Source: an uncultured Clostridia bacterium
Lineage (GTDB): Bacteria > Bacillota > Clostridia > TANB77 > CAG-508
DNA: 64,000 bases
NCBI GenBank assembly: GCA_944392545.1
Contig: CALXWW010000004.1
Location: 28,487-92,486, forward strand
Reading direction: 5' to 3'
In this document: positions 27,843 through 58,949 of the stretch, piece by piece
Layout of the letters: each line of letters starts with the position of its first letter
Numbering within the stretch: position 1 is the stretch's first letter
Program-made: the position numbers and the translations under genes
Notes under the pieces: model-generated
Told to the model about the DNA's origin: nothing
Databases searched by the model: none
Seen by the model: the letters and a program-made list of their open reading frames with translations, nothing else

Positions 27843-29644
27843 TATTTTATTAATTCTTGGAATTCCTCTGCAGAAATCACTTCTCTCTCTAATAATGCAC
27901 CTGCTACTTTATCTAACTTGTCCATATTTTCTCTAATTAATTTCTGTGCTGTAGCATATGCATTATCTAGCAATATTTTAACTTCTGCACCTATCGCATC
28001 TCCAAATTTTTGTCCTAACAATTGTAGTTCGTATGGATCTTGTTCTGTGTTTATCGAAATTGGTCCTAATGTTTCGCTCATGCCATATTTTGTTATCATG
28101 TCTTTTGCAATGTTTGTTGCCACTTCTATATCATTGCTTGCACCTGTTGATATATCATTTAATACTATTTTTTCTGCTGCTCTACCACCCATTAAAGCTA
28201 TCATTTTTTCTTGCATTTCTGTTTTTGAGATATAGTATTTGTCTTCGTCTGATTTATACATCGTATATCCTCCGGCTACACCTCTTGGTATTATTGATAC
28301 TTCTTTTACGCCTTTTTGTGTTTCTAGCCTGCTACTTACTATTGCATGCCCTGCTTCATGGTATGCAGTAAGTTTTTTATCTTTTTCTGATATTACTCTA
28401 CTTTGTTTTTCAAGTCCAACAGTTACTTTCTTTACAGCGTCTTCTATGTCTTTATTGGTAATTGCCTCATGTTCATTTATTGTTGCTATAATTGCTGCTT
28501 CGTTTAAAATATTTGCTAAATCTGCACCTGTAAATCCTGCTGTGTCTTCTGCAATACTTTTTAAGTTGACATCTCCTGCGAATTTCTTTTCTTTTGCATG
28601 AATGTTTAGTATTGCTTCTCTTCCTCTCATATCTGGTAAGCCTATTGTTATTCTTCTGTCAAATCTTCCTGGTCTTAATAATGCTTTGTCTAACATTTCT
28701 GGTCTATTTGTTGCTGCAAGTACTATTACTGTTTCTTCTGTGTCAAATCCGTCCATTTCAACAAGTAATTGATTTAGAGTTTGGTTGTTTTCTGATTCTG
28801 CACCTCCGCTTGTATTTCTTCTTGAACCGATTGCATCTATTTCATCTATAAATATTATACAAGGAGATATTTTTTTTGCTTTTTCAAATAACTTTCTTAC
28901 TCTTGACGCACCAAGTCCTGCAAACATTTCTATAAATTCTGACCCACTCATCGATATGAATGGTACTTTTGCTTCTCCTGCTATTGCTTTTGCGATTAAA
29001 GTTTTACCTGTACCTGGTTGTCCACAAAGAAGTACTCCTCTAGGAATTTTTGCACCCATTTTATTAAATCTTTCTGGATTTTTTAAGAAGTCAACTATTT
29101 CTATCATTTCATGTTTCTCTTCTTCTAATCCGGCCACGTCATCAAATGTCATTTTTGATTTTGTAGTTTCGCTATCATATACTTTACCTTTATCTCCTAA
29201 GCCCTGCATTTTGAAGAATAATACAATAAGTGCTACTAATAATATTGTTGGCAATAGTGAAAACAATGCTGTTCCTATTGATATAAGAGCATTTGTTGGT
29301 TTTTGAATAAGTTCAAATTCGTTATTTCCTTCATCAACTTTTTGTTGAATAAACTCTGTAAACGCTTGTGTACTTGGAACTATTGTCTTCTTCTCTTCTT
29401 CTATATTTTTTAGTTTTACTTTGATTGTAGTGCTTCCAACTGTCATTTCAATCTTTTCTACATTTCCATTGTTTAATTCTTGAATGAGCTCTGTATATGC
29501 AAGTTCTTTTTCGTTTTCTTTATTTCCGTCTTTTGTGATGAAATATACCATACATGCTACTATTATTACTAGAACTACTAAAGTTCCAAATAAAACATAT
29601 TGTTTCTTTTTGCTCTGCTCATTATTTTTTTGCTTTTCTTCCAT
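27842..29644 (-). CDS. ftsH: ATP-dependent zinc metalloprotease FtsH
   Basis: Walker A GQPGTGKT. AAA second region of homology. HEAGHAIV zinc site. N-terminal TM helix. 600 aa. Confidence 0.95.
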   Translation of the reverse strand: MEEKQKNNEQSKKKQYVLFGTLVVLVIIVACMVYFITKDGNKENEKELAYTELIQELNNGNVEKIEMTVGSTTIKVKLKNIEEEKKTIVPSTQAFTEFIQQKVDEGNNEFELIQKPTNALISIGTALFSLLPTILLVALIVLFFKMQGLGDKGKVYDSETTKSKMTFDDVAGLEEEKHEMIEIVDFLKNPERFNKMGAKIPRGVLLCGQPGTGKTLIAKAIAGEAKVPFISMSGSEFIEMFAGLGASRVRKLFEKAKKISPCIIFIDEIDAIGSRRNTSGGAESENNQTLNQLLVEMDGFDTEETVIVLAATNRPEMLDKALLRPGRFDRRITIGLPDMRGREAILNIHAKEKKFAGDVNLKSIAEDTAGFTGADLANILNEAAIIATINEHEAITNKDIEDAVKKVTVGLEKQSRVISEKDKKLTAYHEAGHAIVSSRLETQKGVKEVSIIPRGVAGGYTMYKSDEDKYYISKTEMQEKMIALMGGRAAEKIVLNDISTGASNDIEVATNIAKDMITKYGMSETLGPISINTEQDPYELQLLGQKFGDAIGAEVKILLDNAYATAQKLIRENMDKLDKVAGALLEREVISAEEFQELIK

Positions 29645-49899: not shown

Positions 49900-52233
49900 T
49901 TATGTTTCTACATTATACTCATATACAACTATTTCCTTTGTATCAAAGTCAAATTCATTCATTTTATAATTCACATAGAAATTATCTTCTTTTACAAATT
50001 TCAAATTTAACTTATTTGTATCTAATAATACTTCTGTTGATAAGTCCATACCAACTGGTAATGTTTTATTAAAATTATCATAAAACATTATATTGGTATA
50101 AAATACTGCTGGCGTGTTTTCCTTTATGTTTATTTTACAAAGTATTAATTTATTTTTTCTACTTCTTATTTCCTGTTCTATAGCATTTTTAGGATTTATA
50201 TCAAATATATGTATTCCTTCAATACCTTTCTTAGCATTTAGGCAATATACAGACATATCATATGGTGACTGTATCTTGTTTAGTGCTTCTTTTATTAATT
50301 GTAAATAACTGTGTATATTTAAAGTATATGCTTCTATATCTGTATCCATATTTACATTAAGTACTTTATACTTATCTTTTTCTATTTCTCTATGCTTAAC
50401 ATTATTTATAGCTTTAATTTTTGTTTTATCCTCTACTAGTCCTCCAAAAATATCATAGTCTTTAGCATTAATTATCTCTATATCGTTTTCATATTCTTTC
50501 TGCAATTCTTGTAAATCTTTTTCTATTGCTGACATTATCTTTTTCTTTCTAGTTTTTGTTTTTTGGTTCTCTTCCTCTTTAAGTTCTTTATTTCCCACAA
50601 CCTCTTGTTCTTCTAGTTCTCTAAAAGAATTTGGCACAATTTTTACAGCAAACATTGCATCAGTCTCATTTTTAGAAAGTTTCCTTCTTTGCAGCTCATC
50701 CATTTTTTTCCCTAAATCTTCTAAATCCTCATCGTAATCAAAATACTTTTTCATTTTTGTTTTTTCATTTTCTTCTTCCTCTTCCGCTTGAGCTAAAGTT
50801 TGCATTTCATCTTTACTTGTAAACTTCCAAAACTCAAAAATACTCTTTTTATGTTTATCTATTTCCTTTATATACAAATCTGCATTATCTATTTTTTTAG
50901 ATAATATTTCTTTTTTAGTTTCTATTGCTTTCAAATCAAGTATTAGGTTTGAATTTTCCTTTTTTACTTCTTCTAATTTTGTACATATATTTATTAAATC
51001 TTCTATTGTATATTGTTCTTTTAACTCGTATAAGGCTTCTAATGTTTCATCTTTCTTTTCTTCATTTTGTTCTCTTTTTTCTGGCTTTTTAATAATTTTT
51101 TCATCTTTCTTTTTTCTAAAGAAATATTTTACTCTACCAAAAAATGTTTTCTTACACTCTAAAAATGTTGCTATTTGTTTTTGTCTTAACAAATATTCTT
51201 GAGTCAAGTCTTCTATTACTATTTTAAATTTTGCTAATTTTCTTTTTAATTCTTTCTGTTCTTTTTCTTCATATTTTAGTCTATCTATTTTGTCTAAATA
51301 TTCTAATTTTATATATTCAGATAATTTGTCATATTCTATTTTTGTATTATTATTCCAAAACTCAATTTCTCCGTCACTATTAAGCTTTGTAACAAATTTA
51401 TATTCTTCTCTTGCACCTGTTGCTAATATAAACATAGCTTTTAGTATTTTATATAACTCTACTGCTTTTTCTTTAGTATCTAGAGTTATGCTGTAAGTAG
51501 TCCTCATTTTCTCATAAATATTAGTTTCCCCTACTATTTTTATAAACATGTTATTATCCTTATCAAATATTTCATAAATATTTGGCCACTCTTTCGTAAA
51601 ATACCATAAGTAATTTTCCATATCATCTATTTCAGATTTACTTAAAAATTCTCCTGTATATTCCATATGACTTACTGGAACGAAAATATATCTTGGTTTT
51701 CTGGCTCTTATGTTTTTTATTTGCTCTTTTAATAAATAAAATAAAGCATTATTATCTTGTTCTTCTGTTGCCACCAACATAAAATATTTTTTTGCATAGT
51801 CTGAATAATATATTTGCCAAATAAAGTTATTTGGATATTTTACTTCAAATGGTATTTTATCATTTAATTCTTCTTGTTCTTTCGATATTTCTTCTATTCT
51901 TTCTTTATTAATAGTTGATACTAATTTTATAAATTTAGCAAATTTTTCTATATTTTCTTCTTTCTCTGAATCTAAATATTCACAAATTGGACTAGACAAT
52001 TTATATCTTTGCTTTATATCTGTTAATCTATTTTCTGGAGTTATTAATATTTCTATTTCTTTTATATTCACATATCTATATACCTTATAGATTGTATCAT
52101 CATATGATTTAGAAGGTCTAAAATTAAGTCCTTCATATTTTTTTAGGAAGGATGGTATTTTGTTTAAATTTAGACCAATATATTTTAGATTTTCTTCAAA
52201 TGTTTTTTCTGTTTCTTTTGTAATTTTAGCCAT
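49900..52233 (-). CDS. Large (777 aa) coiled-coil hypothetical protein
   Basis: Uninterrupted ORF with GGAGGG RBS and a TGaTATAAT -10 element upstream. No P-loop, TM helix or known domain. Confidence 0.5.
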   Translation of the reverse strand: MAKITKETEKTFEENLKYIGLNLNKIPSFLKKYEGLNFRPSKSYDDTIYKVYRYVNIKEIEILITPENRLTDIKQRYKLSSPICEYLDSEKEENIEKFAKFIKLVSTINKERIEEISKEQEELNDKIPFEVKYPNNFIWQIYYSDYAKKYFMLVATEEQDNNALFYLLKEQIKNIRARKPRYIFVPVSHMEYTGEFLSKSEIDDMENYLWYFTKEWPNIYEIFDKDNNMFIKIVGETNIYEKMRTTYSITLDTKEKAVELYKILKAMFILATGAREEYKFVTKLNSDGEIEFWNNNTKIEYDKLSEYIKLEYLDKIDRLKYEEKEQKELKRKLAKFKIVIEDLTQEYLLRQKQIATFLECKKTFFGRVKYFFRKKKDEKIIKKPEKREQNEEKKDETLEALYELKEQYTIEDLINICTKLEEVKKENSNLILDLKAIETKKEILSKKIDNADLYIKEIDKHKKSIFEFWKFTSKDEMQTLAQAEEEEENEKTKMKKYFDYDEDLEDLGKKMDELQRRKLSKNETDAMFAVKIVPNSFRELEEQEVVGNKELKEEENQKTKTRKKKIMSAIEKDLQELQKEYENDIEIINAKDYDIFGGLVEDKTKIKAINNVKHREIEKDKYKVLNVNMDTDIEAYTLNIHSYLQLIKEALNKIQSPYDMSVYCLNAKKGIEGIHIFDINPKNAIEQEIRSRKNKLILCKINIKENTPAVFYTNIMFYDNFNKTLPVGMDLSTEVLLDTNKLNLKFVKEDNFYVNYKMNEFDFDTKEIVVYEYNVET

Positions 52234-52327: not shown

Positions 52328-52369
52328 AGAAAAGACTGCCTAGAAAATTATCTCTAGGCAGTCTTTTCT
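52328..52369 (-). terminator. Intrinsic terminator abutting the RelA/SpoT-domain gene stop codon
   Basis: Perfect 17-bp inverted repeat agaaaagactgcctaga-N8-tctaggcagtcttttct. The GC core stem is followed by UUUUCU on the minus strand. Confidence 0.65.
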
Positions 52370-52370
52370 G

Positions 52371-53228
52371 TTACAACAATCCGAACGGATCTCCGGATTT
52401 TGCTAAGCAAACCATGTCGCAGACATCTCCATTTTTTGAAGCATAAAAGCCTCTAATAGACAGTTTGGTAAAATCCAATTCAATATCTGCACCTTTATAC
52501 TTGCTTGTTTTGTATGGCAGGTGATTTGCAGAGCCATATTCCGCTCTGATATCCATTGCCAGCGTTCGCACTTGAATTTCGAATACTAGACCATCGCTCT
52601 TCCTAACAATTGTATGAAGGCTCTGGTAACCGTTTGCCTTTGGATTACGAATGTAATCCTTAACATTGGTTTCAAATCCAGGAAGTATCATATTAGTGTC
52701 TGGAATAACGATCTTTGCCTCTTCATTCGTCACATACGCATCTTTCAGAAGAGGCTCTGCTTCTGTCAGGATGCACCCCCGTTCCATCACAAAGTATTCA
52801 ATCAGTTTGTTTAGCACTTTATAGCAAAGGTTAACCGTTTCCAGTGTATCTTTACTTTCAGTGCACAAAATGATACGAAAACCAAGGAAGTCGTTGATTT
52901 TGTCAAGCGGTGAATTCTTGAGTAAGAATAAACGAATCTTCTCGTTTAATCCTACAAAATCCTTTTGTCTTCTTATGAGCCTAATCCTTATGCCATACAG
53001 TTCAGCAAGATCCCGCAGGTGTTCTTTTACTTCATGGAACTCTTCCTCGAGTTCGCGAAGCTTTGGTATTGCCAGCATATTCCGGAATTCCTCAAGCTTG
53101 TTGGCATAGAGGAAATTAGTAATAGATGGGTTTGATCGTAGAGTCTTTATATACTCTTCCCAAACCTCATCCATTGTAGTCGCTGTTTCCAGCACTTGTT
53201 GTAAGTCTGGGAAATAAATGTCTTCCAT
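52371..53228 (-). CDS. RelA/SpoT-domain (synthetase-only small-alarmone-synthetase-like) protein; compositionally foreign
   Basis: SYNTH motifs RRQKDFVGLNEKI, DFLGFRIIL, VKDYIRNPKANGYQSLHTIV and EIQVRTLAMDIRAEYGSANHLPYK. Gene is about 40% GC against a 25-28% background. No hydrolase domain. Confidence 0.8.
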   Translation of the reverse strand: MEDIYFPDLQQVLETATTMDEVWEEYIKTLRSNPSITNFLYANKLEEFRNMLAIPKLRELEEEFHEVKEHLRDLAELYGIRIRLIRRQKDFVGLNEKIRLFLLKNSPLDKINDFLGFRIILCTESKDTLETVNLCYKVLNKLIEYFVMERGCILTEAEPLLKDAYVTNEEAKIVIPDTNMILPGFETNVKDYIRNPKANGYQSLHTIVRKSDGLVFEIQVRTLAMDIRAEYGSANHLPYKTSKYKGADIELDFTKLSIRGFYASKNGDVCDMVCLAKSGDPFGLL

Positions 53229-53262
53229 CTGTACTCCTCCATTTCATTAATTTTATATGCAT

Positions 53263-53304
53263 GTGCATATACTAATATTATACCACATTTTCTTTGTATT
53301 AACA
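53263..53304 (-). promoter_or_regulatory. Sigma-A-type promoter of the RelA/SpoT-domain gene
   Basis: On the minus strand: TTGTTA-N17-TGGTATAAT (extended -10). GGAGG RBS 7 nt before the ATG. Confidence 0.55.
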
Positions 53305-53311
53305 AATTTTT

Positions 53312-53350
53312 CAAAAAAGAGTCTACATAATTTATATGCAAACTCTTTTT
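53312..53350 (-). terminator. Probable thrS terminator (A/U-rich stem, U tract)
   Basis: aaaaaagagt-N19-actctttttt. Confidence 0.4.
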
Positions 53351-53380: not shown

Positions 53381-55312
53381 CTATTTAGAAAAGTTCTCAA
53401 CTTCTTCTACAATTTTAGATACAAACTCATCTACATTCATAGCACCAATATCTCCATCTTTTCTTGAACGTACTCCTACTGCATTTGATTCTATTTCTTT
53501 ATCTCCTAATACTAACATATATGGGACTTTTTGAAGTTGTGCTTCTCTTATTTTGTATCCTATTTTTTCATTTCTGTCATCTAATTCTACTCTTATATTC
53601 TTTTCTTCCAATTTATCTTTCACTTTTTTAGCATATTCTACATGAGCGTCTGCAATCGGTAATAGTTTTACTTGTACAGGTGCAAGCCATGTTGGGAAAG
53701 CACCTTTTGTTTCTTCTATTAAGAAAGAAATAAATCTATCAAATGTTCCAAGTATTGCTCTATGTATAACTATTGGTCTATGTGCTTTACCATCTTCACC
53801 AATGTATTCTAGTTCAAATCTTTGAGGTAATAGGAAGTCTAATTGGCATGTAGATATTGTTACATCATGTCCTATTGCTGTTTTTATTTGAACATCTAGT
53901 TTTGGTCCATAGAATGCCGCTTCACCCTTTGCTTCATAAAAGTCTATATTAAGTTCTGTTAAGATTTGTCTTAATTGACTTTCTGCATTTTCCCACATTT
54001 CATCATCATCAAAATATTTTTCTTTATTTTCTTTATCTCTTAACGATAATCTAAATGTATAATCTTTAAATCCAAAGTCTTTATATACAGCAAGTATTAG
54101 GTTTACCACTTCGCCAAATACTGGTTTTATTTGTTCTGGAGTTACAAATATATGTGCATCGTTTTGACACATTTCTCTTACTCTTTCTAAACCACAAACA
54201 CTTCCGCTTGCTTCATATCTAAAATCATGTGCAAGTTCACCGATTCTTATTGGTAAATCTCTATATGAATGCATTGCATTTTTGTATATTAGCATATGGT
54301 GTGGACAGTTCATTGGTCTTAACACCATTTCTTCATTATCCATTTTCATTACTGGAAACATATCATCTTTATAGTGATCCCAGTGTCCACTTGTTTTGTA
54401 TAACGCAACATTTGCAAGTGATGGAGTATATACATGTTTATATCCTAATTTTACTTCTTTATTTAAAATGTATTGTTCTAATAATCTTCTTATTGTTGCA
54501 CCATTTGGTAAATACATTGGAAGTCCTGAGCCTACAAGTTCATGTGTCATAAATAAATCTAATTGTTTTCCTATTTTTCTATGATCTCTTTGTTTTGCAT
54601 CTTCTAATTTTTGCATATGTTCTTCAAGCTGGCTCGCTTTTGGGAAAGATACTCCATAAAATCTTTGAAGCATTTTATTATGCTCATTTCCTCTCCAATA
54701 TGCACCTGAAGAAGTTAAAATTTTTATAGATTTAACTTTACCTGTACTCATTAAATGTGGTCCTGCACATAAATCAGTAAATTCCCCTTGTTTATAAAAA
54801 GAGATTTCTTCTCCTTCTGGAAGTTCTTCAATTAATTCTACTTTATAGTCTTCACCTTGTTCTTTTTCAAATTTAATAGCTTCTTCTCTTGAAAGAGTAT
54901 ATCTTTCAATTGGTAAGTCTTCTTTAATAATCTTCTTCATTTCAGCTTCTATTTTTTCAAAATCTTCTGAAGAAATATTTTCTTTCACATCAAAATCATA
55001 ATAAAATCCTTCATCTATTGATGGACCTATCGCAAGTTTAATATCATTTCCATATATTCTTTTTATAGCTTGTGCCATAATATGAGAAGTTGTATGCCAG
55101 TATGCTTTTTTACCATCTTCACTATTATCAAAAGTTAATATTTCTACCTCTGCATCTTCTATTATATTATATCTTAAATCTTTAACTTCTCCATTTACTC
55201 TTCCACAAGTTGCATTTCTTGCCAAACCTTCACTTATTTTTTTTGCTAAATCTAAAATTGAAATTCCTTTTTCAACTTCCATAGCTGTTCCATCTTTTAA
55301 AATAACCTTCAT
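53381..55312 (-). CDS. thrS: Threonyl-tRNA synthetase
   Basis: TGS domain, class II core and anticodon-binding domain. Start placed at MKVILKDG (AAGGAAG RBS). The 5' extension in the supplied ORF overlaps the T-box leader. Confidence 0.95.
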   Translation of the reverse strand: MKVILKDGTAMEVEKGISILDLAKKISEGLARNATCGRVNGEVKDLRYNIIEDAEVEILTFDNSEDGKKAYWHTTSHIMAQAIKRIYGNDIKLAIGPSIDEGFYYDFDVKENISSEDFEKIEAEMKKIIKEDLPIERYTLSREEAIKFEKEQGEDYKVELIEELPEGEEISFYKQGEFTDLCAGPHLMSTGKVKSIKILTSSGAYWRGNEHNKMLQRFYGVSFPKASQLEEHMQKLEDAKQRDHRKIGKQLDLFMTHELVGSGLPMYLPNGATIRRLLEQYILNKEVKLGYKHVYTPSLANVALYKTSGHWDHYKDDMFPVMKMDNEEMVLRPMNCPHHMLIYKNAMHSYRDLPIRIGELAHDFRYEASGSVCGLERVREMCQNDAHIFVTPEQIKPVFGEVVNLILAVYKDFGFKDYTFRLSLRDKENKEKYFDDDEMWENAESQLRQILTELNIDFYEAKGEAAFYGPKLDVQIKTAIGHDVTISTCQLDFLLPQRFELEYIGEDGKAHRPIVIHRAILGTFDRFISFLIEETKGAFPTWLAPVQVKLLPIADAHVEYAKKVKDKLEEKNIRVELDDRNEKIGYKIREAQLQKVPYMLVLGDKEIESNAVGVRSRKDGDIGAMNVDEFVSKIVEEVENFSK

Positions 55313-55329: not shown

Positions 55330-55560
55330 TTAAAAACAAAGTTATATCAAAAAAACACTCCTCTGCAATCAAATGACTACAGAGGGGTGCTCTATATAAC
55401 ACGGTTCCACCCTTTGTTTTACTCTAAATTTACTTTTAACGCAAGTTATACGTCTAGTTTTGCTAGAAACAATGAGGTAGTTTTTCAAATATGTTTATTT
55501 AAAATAGCTTTCAGCCTATGACTATTTCTCTCTTAAAATAACCTTTATTTTACTTTTTCT
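55330..55560 (-). promoter_or_regulatory. T-box riboswitch leader of thrS (Thr ACC specifier)
   Basis: On the minus strand: AGAGAG in the stem I region. ACUACCUCA candidate specifier loop. T-box sequence AAAGGGTGGAACCGTG. Terminator cccctctgtag...ttgcagagg followed by a U7 tract. Confidence 0.8.
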
Positions 55561-55620
55561 CATTTATGTTTTTATCAATATGTTTTTTATTATATATCTT
55601 TTTTTATGTTATGTCAACAC

Positions 55621-55670
55621 CTGTTATGTAGTTTTATTATATTATCTGTTATGTAGTTTTATTATATTAT
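55621..55670. repeat. Perfect 25-bp tandem duplication (CTGTTATGTAGTTTTATTATATTAT x2) spanning the 3' end of the DUF4190-like gene
   Basis: Read directly from the sequence. Confidence 0.85.
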
Positions 55671-56032
55671 AACATAAATACATACATTGACATAAATACA
55701 AATTCTACTGCACCTACACATAATCCTGTAACGCCCATCCACTTTGCTGTTTGTTTTTCTTGCTTAAATGTTGTAATTCCTATTATTCCTAGTATTGTTG
55801 CTACTATTCCACATGGTAATCCAAACATTAAGATACCTACCATTGAAAAGATAAAACTTAATAAACAACATACGTTTATTTTCTTTTCTACTGTTTGATT
55901 TGTTTGTGTTGTATTTACTGTATCATTTACATTTTCCATATTTTGCATTACAGTTTCATTCGTTTGCACATTCTCTTGTTTTTCATTTGATTCTAAATTT
56001 TGATTTAAATTATTCTCTTCCATAAAAAACAC
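55667..56032 (-). CDS. Small membrane protein (DUF4190-like)
   Basis: 121 aa. N/Q-rich N-terminus and two C-terminal TM helices with the CGIVATILGIIG pattern. Confidence 0.4.
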   Translation of the reverse strand: MFFMEENNLNQNLESNEKQENVQTNETVMQNMENVNDTVNTTQTNQTVEKKINVCCLLSFIFSMVGILMFGLPCGIVATILGIIGITTFKQEKQTAKWMGVTGLCVGAVEFVFMSMYVFML

Positions 56033-56060: not shown

Positions 56061-58949
56061 TTATTTATCAATATTTTTATGTTTAATATAAAAATATATA
56101 CTAAATATGGCAATAATAATCACTACTATTCCAATAGATATTATTCCTGTTTGTGGTATTGGATTTGGTGCTACTGTATTATCTATTGAATTTTCACCTG
56201 ATTCATCGTTATCTGGTGGGACTATTGGATTATTATCATCAATAATATCTTCTACATATACATTATCTTTATAAAATGATAATTTTACATTATCTGCATT
56301 TATAAGATTTGACTTGATTTGCTCTACACTTTCATCATTTACTTTAGCAATTTCTTTTAAATATATATACAACTCATCTGGATTTTTTTCACTTAATTCT
56401 TCATAGTTTATCATATCTTTAGTGCTTATCTTAAATGTCATTGTATATGTCCCATCTTCATTTTCAGTTATGCTTATATTTTTCAATTTTGTCCAATTTT
56501 CTATGTTTTCTTCAGAATCACTTTCTGATAAATAATAATAATATGTATAATCTGTATCTGCGTCTCTATCTTTTATATTATCTATCTTAAAACTCATATC
56601 TACATAATTTTCCTCATCTATATCATAATATAGATATATGCTAGCATCTGTTAAACTAGTTTTCATTTCTTCTAAATTTGATAATATTGGTCTTGCACCC
56701 TCTAATATTTCTATTTCAAATGTAGTGGTAAATCCTTCATATTCAATAGTTATATTTTGCTTTCCTATTACTTTGCTATTAAAGCCTGTTATTATAAATG
56801 ATTTTGAATTCATTTTTAAGTCTTGGATACTATCATCTGTATATGTTATTCTTACTACTCCACCTTCCAAATTTAATTCTTCTTCATTCTCCATATATGT
56901 AGTTTTAGTAGGTAATGTTAATACTTCTATGCTTCTTATCTCTTTTTCTACTACTATTGGATTTACTGTTATATTCTGCACTACTTTTTTCGTTATTCCA
57001 TCTTCTGTATATGAAATAGTTATACTTTCTTGACCATAGTATAGGTTATCTCCATTTTCTATGTTGTAATTCGTTATTTCTTTTGTACTCAAGTCACTAT
57101 ATGTAGCTAGAACTACCATTCCTGCATCATCAAAATCTTCACCTTCTGTATATATTAATTTGTTTGGAGGAGTAGTTATTTCGATTTTTGTTAATTCTGG
57201 TTCTTCTTTTTCTTCCTCTGTAAATGCTTTTATTGAAACATTTCCATGAAGAAATTCATATGTGGTTAAATCTATCCATTCTCCTTTGCTAAAGCCCTCT
57301 GTCGTCGTATAAAAGCTCTCGTTTGTGTTTACTTCTACATTTTCGTCTGTATCTTTTGTTTCTGTCATAAAGTTTTGTTCACCAGTACCTGATTGAATGC
57401 TCATTGCTACTGCAAATGTATCTCCAGTTAATTTTATAGGTTCTTTTAACATTATTGTATGATATCCAGGCTCTATTGTTATTGTATCTCCTGCCTCTAA
57501 TTCCACTTCTTGTAGATTTAATAAATCATTACTGCTAGGATTGACGTACACTTTACAGTTCACTTCTTGTATTGTAAATATGCTAACCATTGTTAATAAT
57601 TCATTTTCTTTATTACTATCTCTTGTAAATTTATTTGCTATGTATACATCCTCACTTTCTATAACCCCCACAGGAATAGAAGGATTCAATTTATTGTTTT
57701 GATATATATTATCATAATCTTTAGTTGCTGTTGCTTTTTCTATTGCATATAGTTCATTATATATATGTACGTCTTCATATGAAACATACATATATCCACT
57801 ATCTCCAATGTCTACAACTAATTTGTCTTGTTCAACTCTTACTTTTCCTTCTCCATATGAGCTCTCAAAAGCATCTATTATAAAATTATTTTCAATATCT
57901 TCTGGCGCATTCCATCCACGCTCATTGCATTGTTCTGTATATTCTGAATATATTTGTTCTTTGATTTTTATTAAATCTTCTGTTAGTTTGTCTCCCCAAG
58001 AATTTTTTACTATCCATGCACCATCATACAAAGGCTTATTCTTTTCATTAAAATTATCTTTACTATATGTGTCATCCCAACCAATTATAACTACTGCATG
58101 GTTCATTGGATACAGCCCAGCATCTGAACAATATATTGCACCCGTTTTGTTATTATATACGTCTGAAAGTAATTGTGCACCATGAATTCCAGCATATATT
58201 CCACCATAGTTACTAATTACTTGTTTCATTTTTGACATAAGTTCTGTTATCCCTATATCATCTTTGTCTTCAAACATAATGGTATCATACAATGTAGTAG
58301 TTGTGTTTTTATTTTGTATTTCTGATATATCTACATTATTCTCATTATTTTCAAATGGCATTTCTTCTTCGTCTATTGCACCCATACCATTAGTTAAATA
58401 TGATTGTGCCATATAGAATGTGCCTCCTTGATCAAAGCCTACATTATATCCATATTCATTTATTTCACCATTATTAAATACATTATTTCTTGTAGCATAG
58501 TCCATATGTCTTTCTGAAAAATCATACACATTTTCTGTTGTTCCTGCTTTATAATCTAAAAAAGCTATATTACTCTCTAAACTTCCTATGCTTGCAAAAG
58601 CCCAACATGAATTAGTTTGCATCTGGTTCTTTATAGTAACATTATTTGAAATTATATCTCTTAAATCATACTCTGAATTCAAAGCATTTTGTAACAAAAC
58701 TGGACTATTTAATATGTTATTTATGTTTCTAAAATATTGACTACTTGTTTTTGGTGAAATTACGTCATATCTACTTGGTTCTAATCTATTTTTCTTTTCC
58801 TCATCTGAAAGCGTCATATATTCTTTATATTCGTCTGTATAATCTATAGTTTTAAAATTTGTTTCTACTGCTGCATATACATTTCTACAACAAATTATTC
58901 CTATAAATATTATAAATAATATAGCTATTTTTATTATTTTACTTTTCAT
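56061..58949 (-). CDS. Cell-wall-anchored papain-like (C1A) cysteine protease with Ig-like repeat region and IPQTG sorting signal
   Basis: Signal peptide. QTNSCWAFAS catalytic Cys. HAVVIIGWD His. NSWG. Repeated Big-like domains. C-terminal NPIPQTG, then TM helix and KHKNIDK tail. 962 aa. Confidence 0.85.
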   Translation of the reverse strand: MKSKIIKIAILFIIFIGIICCRNVYAAVETNFKTIDYTDEYKEYMTLSDEEKKNRLEPSRYDVISPKTSSQYFRNINNILNSPVLLQNALNSEYDLRDIISNNVTIKNQMQTNSCWAFASIGSLESNIAFLDYKAGTTENVYDFSERHMDYATRNNVFNNGEINEYGYNVGFDQGGTFYMAQSYLTNGMGAIDEEEMPFENNENNVDISEIQNKNTTTTLYDTIMFEDKDDIGITELMSKMKQVISNYGGIYAGIHGAQLLSDVYNNKTGAIYCSDAGLYPMNHAVVIIGWDDTYSKDNFNEKNKPLYDGAWIVKNSWGDKLTEDLIKIKEQIYSEYTEQCNERGWNAPEDIENNFIIDAFESSYGEGKVRVEQDKLVVDIGDSGYMYVSYEDVHIYNELYAIEKATATKDYDNIYQNNKLNPSIPVGVIESEDVYIANKFTRDSNKENELLTMVSIFTIQEVNCKVYVNPSSNDLLNLQEVELEAGDTITIEPGYHTIMLKEPIKLTGDTFAVAMSIQSGTGEQNFMTETKDTDENVEVNTNESFYTTTEGFSKGEWIDLTTYEFLHGNVSIKAFTEEEKEEPELTKIEITTPPNKLIYTEGEDFDDAGMVVLATYSDLSTKEITNYNIENGDNLYYGQESITISYTEDGITKKVVQNITVNPIVVEKEIRSIEVLTLPTKTTYMENEEELNLEGGVVRITYTDDSIQDLKMNSKSFIITGFNSKVIGKQNITIEYEGFTTTFEIEILEGARPILSNLEEMKTSLTDASIYLYYDIDEENYVDMSFKIDNIKDRDADTDYTYYYYLSESDSEENIENWTKLKNISITENEDGTYTMTFKISTKDMINYEELSEKNPDELYIYLKEIAKVNDESVEQIKSNLINADNVKLSFYKDNVYVEDIIDDNNPIVPPDNDESGENSIDNTVAPNPIPQTGIISIGIVVIIIAIFSIYFYIKHKNIDK

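Follow-up and report, generated by a model that had tools for sequence, protein, structure and literature searches.

The 64,000-nucleotide stretch analysed here (the window; contig CALXWW010000004.1 of an uncultured Clostridia bacterium, positions 28,487 to 92,486) contains on its minus strand a gene for a 285-residue small alarmone synthetase (SAS; 52371..53228) of a new, unannotated Rel-like subfamily. The gene is not a recent import. It is a long-standing resident of the core genome, found at either of two conserved sites, and its foreign-looking composition is a gene-specific equilibrium at about twice the host G+C content at third codon positions (GC3). The coding RNA is far more base-paired than synonymous rearrangements of the same message, and the alleles are hyperdivergent as a block with sharp borders. 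On balance, we regard it as probable that this is a monocistronic, chromosomally fixed synthetase that makes (p)ppGpp and is controlled post-transcriptionally through a compact transcript.

Domain composition and relationship to known synthetases

By its sequence, the protein is a member of the SAS class of the RelA/SpoT superfamily. Its sole Pfam domain is RelA_SpoT (PF04607; 81.6 bits against a cut-off of 27), and neither an HD hydrolase nor TGS/ACT regulatory domains are found in its 285 residues, in agreement with the synthetase-only architecture given in a preliminary description of this DNA. The catalytic motifs listed there are all present, with one correction: the RxKxxxS motif (R87-x-K89) reads RQKDFVG and ends in Gly rather than Ser. 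The remaining motifs, identified from the sequence and the family alignment, are D113-FLG-F-R118-II, K190-DYIRNPKANGYQSLHT and E217-IQVRT. Residues R87, K89, D113, G116, R118, K190, Y201, Q202, H205, E217, Q219 and R221 do not vary across 32 members of the family.

The N-terminal extension and the insertion reported earlier measure ~86 and ~37 residues, respectively, and both are conserved across the family. The N-terminal region is composed of four helices. The insertion (residues 151–187) lies ahead of the KDYI motif and contains conserved EAEP, IIP and GFE motifs, and the C-terminal tail carries a conserved GL.KS.DPFN.L sequence. An AlphaFold2 model (predicted local distance difference test score of 89) contains a single domain plus helices. 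A homologue search covering 5.8 billion proteins recovers a coherent family of 280–310-residue proteins that can be aligned end to end, and a profile search covering 1.84 billion representatives yields 143 distinct clusters at 50% identity (E ≤ 1e-30). A source name is available for only one family member, which is recorded as ‘hypothetical protein [Clostridia bacterium]’.

Profile matches in the PDB are to Rel (66–76 bits), RelA (64–70 bits), RelP (49–52 bits) and RelQ (~33 bits). The Foldseek ranking agrees, with the fold lying nearer to Rel, RelP and RelQ than to the toxic SAS enzymes (toxSAS). The best sequence and profile matches are to the SYNTH domains of long Rel proteins (Bacillus subtilis Rel, 8ACU and 6YXA; Mycobacterium tuberculosis Rel, 5XNX; RelSeq, 1VJ7), which have all of the catalytic motifs in common with SAS and whose helical region preceding SYNTH aligns with part of the SAS N-terminal helices. 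Unlike long Rel, SAS is only 285 residues long, lacks the HD and TGS/ACT domains, and adds the ~37-residue insertion and the conserved tail. The KDYI motif is of the RxKD (bifunctional) type and not the EXDD type of RelA, two classes reportedly distinguished by Sajish et al. 2007.

The housekeeping enzymes RelP and RelQ of the Firmicutes are likewise single-domain synthetases encoded by monocistronic chromosomal genes. They are compact (about 210–230 residues), whereas SAS is ~70 residues longer, with extra helices and the insertion. SAS scores 25.8 bits against a cut-off of 320 for the NCBIfam RelQ equivalog NF053588, and the earlier statement that it is not of the RelQ/RelP type holds. Hyperdivergent alleles, a GC3 offset and a folded coding sequence also set SAS apart, as traits measured on the SAS side of this comparison alone.

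The fused toxSAS CapRel (7ZTB) and the toxin–antitoxin families FaRel, FaRel2, PhRel and PhRel2 resemble SAS in being fast-evolving, synthetase-only RelA/SpoT homologues (RSHs) with extra non-catalytic segments in the same polypeptide; identity to CapRel in the aligned core is 17%. The toxSAS modules are conserved, often overlapping, two- or three-gene operons that include a cognate antitoxin (Jimmy et al. 2020, PMC7229694). In contrast, SAS has no adjacent antitoxin and occupies a fixed core-genome position, mostly off prophages and defence islands. No toxSAS chain (CapRel, FaRel2, Tas1) is matched in the PDB profile search even at E ≤ 10, and neither sequence nor fold shows an affinity to validated toxSAS. 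PADLOC-DB 2.0 returns only PDC-S33, a weak candidate-model match (1.2e-9) limited to the catalytic motif (residues 187–223), and no full-length defence-protein model; a PHROGs search gave nothing useful. With no conserved adjacent partner, no match to a solved toxSAS and a PADLOC hit at the motif level only, the label ‘toxSAS-like’ used in the preliminary description is not supported by these comparisons, although the hyperdivergent alleles make a role in conflict conceivable. RickRel and RickSpo are single-domain groups derived from long RSHs (Jimmy et al. 2020, PMC7229694), and the Rel-like core of SAS suggests a possible shared route, domain loss from a long RSH, in different taxa.

The G-loop of SAS is of the guanosine-synthetase type, from which we infer a (p)ppGpp product. 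SAS most probably transfers pyrophosphate from ATP to GTP or GDP.

Conserved genomic sites

We compared neighbourhoods extending 10 kb to either side of each SAS match. In every sampled relative of the clade that includes the window (clade 1), the gene order is PGI–peptidase C1–DUF4190–thrS–SAS–orf777–recN–asnS, and the SAS alleles found in this setting are 100, 88, 84, 72, 64, 62, 58 and 51% identical to the window protein. The promoter, 5′ region and terminator of SAS are conserved among these loci, as is the separate promoter of orf777. The sister clade (clade 2) has a second fixed site, observed at no fewer than 10 loci, where SAS lies between a divergent U32 peptidase gene preceded by a sigma factor gene and a convergent Methyltransf_3 gene followed by BipA. 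The hosts are AT-rich (locus GC of 0.25–0.33), uncultured gut or rumen Clostridia with sporulation genes. All of the ~30 sampled contexts are AT-rich (locus GC of 0.25–0.35) except L128.

A recent genomic island would be absent from close relatives and would have a decaying composition, and neither is seen among the sampled loci. The claim of recent acquisition made in the preliminary description is not supported, given the presence of the cassette at the same locus in all sampled relatives and the second conserved site in the sister clade. That description had named a GC-matched gene in relatives and conservation of the locus as observations that would speak against its reading; the locus is conserved, and the GC content is not matched, the GC3 excess being family-wide. 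A phage origin was rejected because IMG/VR viral contigs contain no family member.

The placement of SAS between recN and thrS is correct for thrS; on the other side lies orf777 (49900-52233, minus strand), and recN is found only beyond it. This gene encodes a Lys/Glu-rich orphan of 777 residues with no match in Pfam, NCBIfam, PHROGs or the PDB. The suggestion that it supplies an antitoxin fails, as orf777 has its own conserved TGATATAAT promoter and a normal composition, always adjoins recN (with 74–87% conservation in relatives) and is missing from the clade 2 sites. No antitoxin-like neighbour is conserved among the sampled SAS loci, where the neighbours are housekeeping genes that differ between the clades. 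Pseudogenization of SAS was rejected: neither the ‘truncated’ forms of 234 residues nor the apparent frameshift in L018 is established as real, and in the one contig examined (L209) orf777 is likewise split in three, which makes indel errors likely.

Two further arrangements were observed. One metagenome-assembled genome (MAG) has a tandem SAS duplication (L016, 1100-1963 and 2068-3000; folding z of -2.2 and -3.65). The sole relative in a GC-richer context (L128, 2411-2983; locus GC of 0.395) has a GC3 of 0.21 compared with 0.41 in its neighbours. It may have left the AT-rich clade by transfer, or the contig, which has low coverage, may be chimeric.

Synonymous-site composition

The SAS gene has a GC content of 0.401 and a GC3 of 0.406, compared with a GC3 of 0.157 ± 0.024 (maximum 0.231) for the 49 other open reading frames (ORFs) of the window (z ~10), as expected from the aberrant composition noted earlier. 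SAS resembles thrS at the first and second codon positions (GC1/GC2 of 0.50/0.30 and 0.48/0.30, respectively), and the anomaly therefore sits at synonymous sites. Both types of third-position choice are shifted, with C/(C+T) at 0.38 and G/(G+A) at 0.40 versus 0.15 and 0.11, and codons that are otherwise nearly absent are heavily used: CTG accounts for 31% of Leu codons (versus 1%) and CGN for 56% of Arg codons (versus 9%). The excess is uniform along the gene.

The offset recurs across the family. SAS GC3 exceeds the neighbour mean in 27 of 27 loci with AT-rich flanks (ratio 2.15 ± 0.47; logit shift +0.95 ± 0.33), by an amount that ranges from near nil (L119, 0.144 versus 0.127) to 0.29, and is correlated with host GC3 (r = 0.69, p = 6e-5). 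Between the window and L114 (the closest pair), SAS has a nonsynonymous divergence (dN) of 0.093 and a synonymous divergence (dS) of ~1.0 (dN/dS of 0.09), and recN has a dN of 0.091 and a dS of 0.92. A two-state estimate indicates that 0.5 substitutions per synonymous site per lineage would erase ~70% of a neutral excess. The two SAS genes nevertheless keep a GC3 of 0.41 and 0.38, compared with 0.13–0.16 in neighbouring genes, and the excess is therefore maintained rather than inherited from a recent donor.

Several sources of the excess were considered and rejected. An overlapping or antisense gene would be expected to leave a conserved long alternative-frame ORF, and there is none. With Rfam, no known structured RNA is recognized inside the gene, the matches being at noise level and confined to the terminator. 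Rare codons or pause sites at specific positions are not indicated, as the G/C-ending state is unconserved between saturated alleles (odds ratios of ~1), and selection for translational accuracy is not supported, as GC3 is equal at conserved and variable residues. The enriched codons are not those of highly expressed genes: the trigger factor gene has a GC3 of 0.11, and the SAS set includes CTG, CGG and AAG. Nor is the effect a general trait of RSH genes, as long RSH genes in AT-rich hosts have a host-like GC3 and folding z values of +0.1 to +0.9.

Three other loci touch on this composition. A rumen Clostridia MAG contains a 461-residue SAS-like ORF (L026, 9221-10606), a distant relative with a longer N-terminus, which has a GC3 of 0.47 compared with ~0.19 in its neighbours and a folding z of -2.4; the effect may therefore extend beyond the SAS family. 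At clade 2 sites (e.g. L117, 6590-9496), the U32 peptidase and Methyltransf_3 genes that flank SAS resemble trhP and trmR, whose products hydroxylate and methylate U34 of tRNA. This tRNA modification widens the decoding of G- and C-ending codons, and a link between these neighbours and the G/C-ending codon usage of SAS is a candidate. In the one lineage with a host-like SAS GC3 (0.144), Methyltransf_3 and BipA are separated by a gene for a NUDIX hydrolase (L119/L120, 9525-10088), which could be a (p)ppGpp-degrading partner.

Folding of the coding RNA

The coding sequence of the window SAS has a minimum free energy of -257.6 kcal/mol, compared with -203.5 ± 6.3 kcal/mol for dinucleotide shuffles (z -8.5) and -210.3 ± 5.8 kcal/mol for synonymous-codon permutations that keep both the protein and the codon usage (z -8.1). 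All 21 alleles tested, from both clades, give negative values (z -1.5 to -8.6, mean -4.8). The 34 controls, which comprise 20 window genes, clade 2 flanking genes, genes from genomes of 40–47% GC and long-RSH synthetase regions, give z -0.86 ± 1.05 (minimum -2.86). The two sets are well separated (Mann–Whitney p = 4e-9), with 14 of the 21 alleles beneath every control. The signal is largely local, as z remains at -3 to -6.5 when the base-pair span is limited to 60 nt.

Close alleles share 51, 29 and 23% of their base pairs. Since helices are shared only by close alleles and folding is seen in all, it is the degree of folding that is conserved and not a particular fold. Within clade 1, the window fold contains 49 pairs changed on both sides, compared with 32.5 ± 3.7 in shuffles and 27–37 in slid controls. 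A family-wide 5′–3′ cyclization helix was rejected (mean z -0.2); a single 5′–3′ helix with compensatory changes was found in clade 1.

Transcription unit

SAS forms a self-contained unit from promoter to terminator, as described earlier. It is bordered upstream by the intrinsic terminator of thrS (hairpin plus T-run; 53312..53344, minus strand; -9.6 kcal/mol, z -3.6). The SAS promoter (53277..53305, minus strand), located by a consensus scan, has the reported TTGTTA-17-TATAAT elements and an extended -10 (TTGTTA-17-TGgTATAAT). In 12 upstream regions from both clades, TATAAT is invariant and TG is mostly kept. Promoter-like sites in this AT-rich DNA are not rarer than chance (24 found versus 21 expected).

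The 5′-proximal segment of the transcript contains a stem-loop (UAUAUGCA/UGCAUAUA; 53254..53271, minus strand; -6.5 kcal/mol). L114, with a GNRA loop, and L013 have a hairpin of different sequence at the same place, and none was seen there in the upstream region of L007. The Shine–Dalgarno sequence GGAGGAG (53234..53240, minus strand) is of a GGAGG type present in most SAS alleles. The SAS terminator (52328..52369, minus strand; -30.5 kcal/mol, z -9.1) is a perfect hairpin directly after the gene, as reported, with a stem of 19 bp instead of 17 bp and a T-run that lies partly within the stem. It is kept with compensatory changes in L114, L007 and L013.

Upstream of thrS, a T-box leader (55380-55575, minus strand) is matched with 75.5 bits and E of 1e-15, below the Rfam gathering score of 93. 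A promoter matching the consensus at 12 of 12 positions lies upstream of this leader, at 55617.

Allele divergence and recombination

At the second site, mean protein identity is 91% for BipA, 82% for the U32 peptidase, 81% for the methyltransferase and 58–79% for other genes; for SAS it is 39%, down to 27% at the lowest, and shows no correlation with that of BipA (r = 0.12). In DNA alignments (window versus L007; L023 versus L024), identity falls from ~90% to 25–65% across precisely the stretch from promoter to terminator and recovers beyond it. SAS alleles of 88, 84, 72, 64 and 62% identity occur in sister lineages that are all ~88–92% identical to the window in their flanks. The most variable parts of the protein are the N-terminal helices and the insertion. 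The dN/dS of 0.09 between the window and L114 shows that the protein is under purifying selection within an allele class. The pattern points either to old allele classes that are swapped by way of the conserved flanks or to diversifying selection in episodes.

Recombination has made the region a mosaic, in which an identical SAS cassette is joined to a 55–65%-identical part of thrS. The allele classes of asnS are discordant with those of other genes, grouping the window and L114 against L007 and L115.

Other variation was observed around the cassette. At window positions 53600 and 55100, loci with an identical SAS cassette drop to 55–80% identity in the 5′ part of thrS (L005) or in the thrS leader and DUF4190 (L002); either these junctions belong to the mosaic or some low-coverage contigs are chimeric. 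A contig with an identical SAS (L004, 1371-2189) leaves the window sequence just past 52200 and runs into recX, through either rearrangement or misassembly (coverage ~2x). Insertions beside the cassette include a DDE-transposase-like ORF and a PDDEXK_2 transposase (L209, 1197-2468; L013, 11281-12174). In L014 (7855-8354), a Phd/YefM antitoxin gene and an overlapping truncated RelE/ParE-like ORF lie beside the cassette, upstream of SAS; the Phd/YefM ORF was rejected as a SAS antitoxin because it is part of this pair. The genes for a peptidase C1/Big_3 surface protein (56061-58949, minus strand) and a DUF4190 membrane protein (55667-56023, minus strand) are ~60–70% identical where thrS is 93% identical and, unlike SAS, have a normal GC3.

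Alternative explanations

One alternative is a conflict gene, that is, a toxic or defence SAS (ppApp-making, tRNA-directed or over-producing (p)ppGpp) whose alleles diversify under phage or competitor pressure. Such an enzyme could be restrained by its own N- or C-terminal elements or, as with type I toxin transcripts, by the folding of its mRNA. We consider this unlikely. Hyperdivergent alleles at a fixed locus, bounded as a block, the large number of distinct clusters and the concentration of variation in the N-terminal helices and insertion all fit this explanation, but dN/dS is low in the closest pair, and the distribution of the gene is not patchy, as no sampled relative lacks it. The transcript appears compact and stable, which also fits, whereas neither a conserved antisense ORF nor an antisense promoter facing the SAS 3′ end is evident. 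A gene controlled like a type I toxin would pair a highly folded, stable mRNA with a cis-encoded antisense RNA or a sequestered ribosome-binding site (RBS); SAS has a folded coding sequence, a 5′ hairpin and a strong terminator, an RBS that is unsequestered, and 5′–3′ pairing that is not general across the family. One family member adjoins JetA/JetD and ParE, and the weak PDC-S33 match points the same way; against this, no partner gene is conserved in an operon with SAS, its neighbours serve housekeeping functions and differ between clades, and the Phd/YefM ORF of L014 belongs to its own degraded RelE/ParE-type module. SAS toxicity has been argued to be a continuum (Jimmy et al. 2020, PMC7229694), but SAS matches no solved toxSAS sequence, its fold is nearer to Rel, RelP and RelQ, and its PKxNGYQSLHT G-loop is of the same type as in (p)ppGpp synthetases.

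It is also conceivable, but in our view very unlikely, that the cassette of each lineage was lately replaced from a GC-richer donor pool and that the GC3 excess has simply not ameliorated. As repeated import would predict, the borders of the divergent block are sharp and match those of the cassette, in a region that is a recombination mosaic, but homologous replacement needs donors that share the flanks, which are the AT-rich relatives themselves. No donor was found: the ~30 contexts are AT-rich save L128, whose SAS relative has a lower GC content than the genes around it, and viral copies are absent from IMG/VR. The lack of correlation between SAS and BipA identity and the spread of allele GC3 from 0.22 to 0.46 in equally distant hosts favour import; however, SAS GC3 scales with host GC3, which a donor of fixed composition would not yield, and SAS in the window and L114 has diverged to the same extent as its flanks with GC3 still at 0.38–0.41.

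A non-adaptive origin, which we judge quite unlikely, would have a local mutation or repair process produce the inverted repeats or G/C enrichment along with the fast divergence, leaving the RNA structure without function. Candidate processes are template switching at quasi-palindromes within a unit under strong transcription and GC-biased gene conversion at a recombination hot spot. The region does recombine, and divergence is bounded roughly by the transcription unit; but other mosaic or hypervariable genes there (asnS, pepC1 and DUF4190) have a normal GC3 of 0.10–0.23, and whole-cassette swaps through the flanks would leave no internal heteroduplex for biased repair. That helices differ between allele classes is as expected from such a process, whereas the compensatory pair changes of clade 1 exceed controls and the effect is found at both of the unrelated genomic sites as well as in the tandem paralog. 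Also in favour of this origin, the antisense strand folds in excess and native folds contain more Watson–Crick and fewer G–U pairs than the null; against it, in 11 of 12 alleles the sense strand shows the larger folding-energy excess.

Proposed control through the transcript

In the explanation that we favour, transcript-level control of a resident SAS, the enzyme comprises a Rel-like synthetase core together with the four-helix N-terminal region, the ~37-residue insertion and the C-terminal tail. Its synonymous sites are pushed to G/C and its codons are arranged for dense base pairing. The 5′ stem-loop, the folded body and the -30 kcal/mol 3′ hairpin would then make the transcript compact, and it would persist for long, be translated slowly, or do both. 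We infer such a transcript because the 5′ hairpin, folded body, 3′ hairpin and non-optimal codons lie behind a strong promoter and Shine–Dalgarno sequence. In this way, an enzyme that could arrest growth, and that has neither a hydrolase nor an antitoxin partner beside it, may be controlled post-transcriptionally.

Several observations weigh against this explanation. The antisense strand beats its own null (mean z -4.5), and this, with the smaller number of G–U pairs and larger number of Watson–Crick pairs in native folds than in shuffles, means that the inverted repeats may have arisen at the DNA level or by mutation. Distant alleles share 0–7% of their pairs; a single conserved fold across the family was rejected on this basis, and no specific RNA fold can therefore be named. 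The RBS and start region are as accessible as in controls (opening energy of 6.4 versus 6.3 kcal/mol), and RBS sequestration was accordingly rejected as the mode of control. The strength of structure is weakly correlated with the GC3 excess (rho -0.34, p 0.17), and L119 is strongly structured (z ~-7) without a GC3 excess. As for the product, (pp)pApp or a tRNA-directed activity would also be compatible with the SAS sequence.

A stronger form of transcript-level control, which we put forward tentatively as possible rather than probable, is that the synthetase is governed by its own mRNA: selection throughout a bacterial radiation would maintain a GC-enriched, densely base-paired, long-lived transcript capped by structure at its 5′ and 3′ ends, and this transcript would gate production of a potentially toxic enzyme without a partner, while the protein diversifies as old allele classes under conflict. 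The gate would respond to conditions of translation or RNA decay, such as the level of GTP, the capacity of helicases or ribosomes, dormancy or shut-off by phage, and the transcript would act as an RNA-level substitute for an antitoxin or hydrolase.

Single-domain synthetases are now split into benign housekeeping enzymes (RelP and RelQ) and toxins held by neighbouring antitoxins, and the SAS family belongs to neither. It combines a Rel-like core with the lack of a partner gene and a fixed core-genome place in many uncultured gut Clostridia, and its protein outpaces every neighbouring gene in evolution. The family is also a warning that a GC and codon anomaly with neat promoter and terminator borders can mimic a fresh acquisition and yet be old, resident and selected. 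The coding RNA carries a strong, family-wide signature of synonymous-site selection in its G/C enrichment and excess base pairing. If that signature is functional, SAS would offer a clear example from nature of a growth-arresting enzyme controlled through mRNA structure that is under selection along the entire gene.

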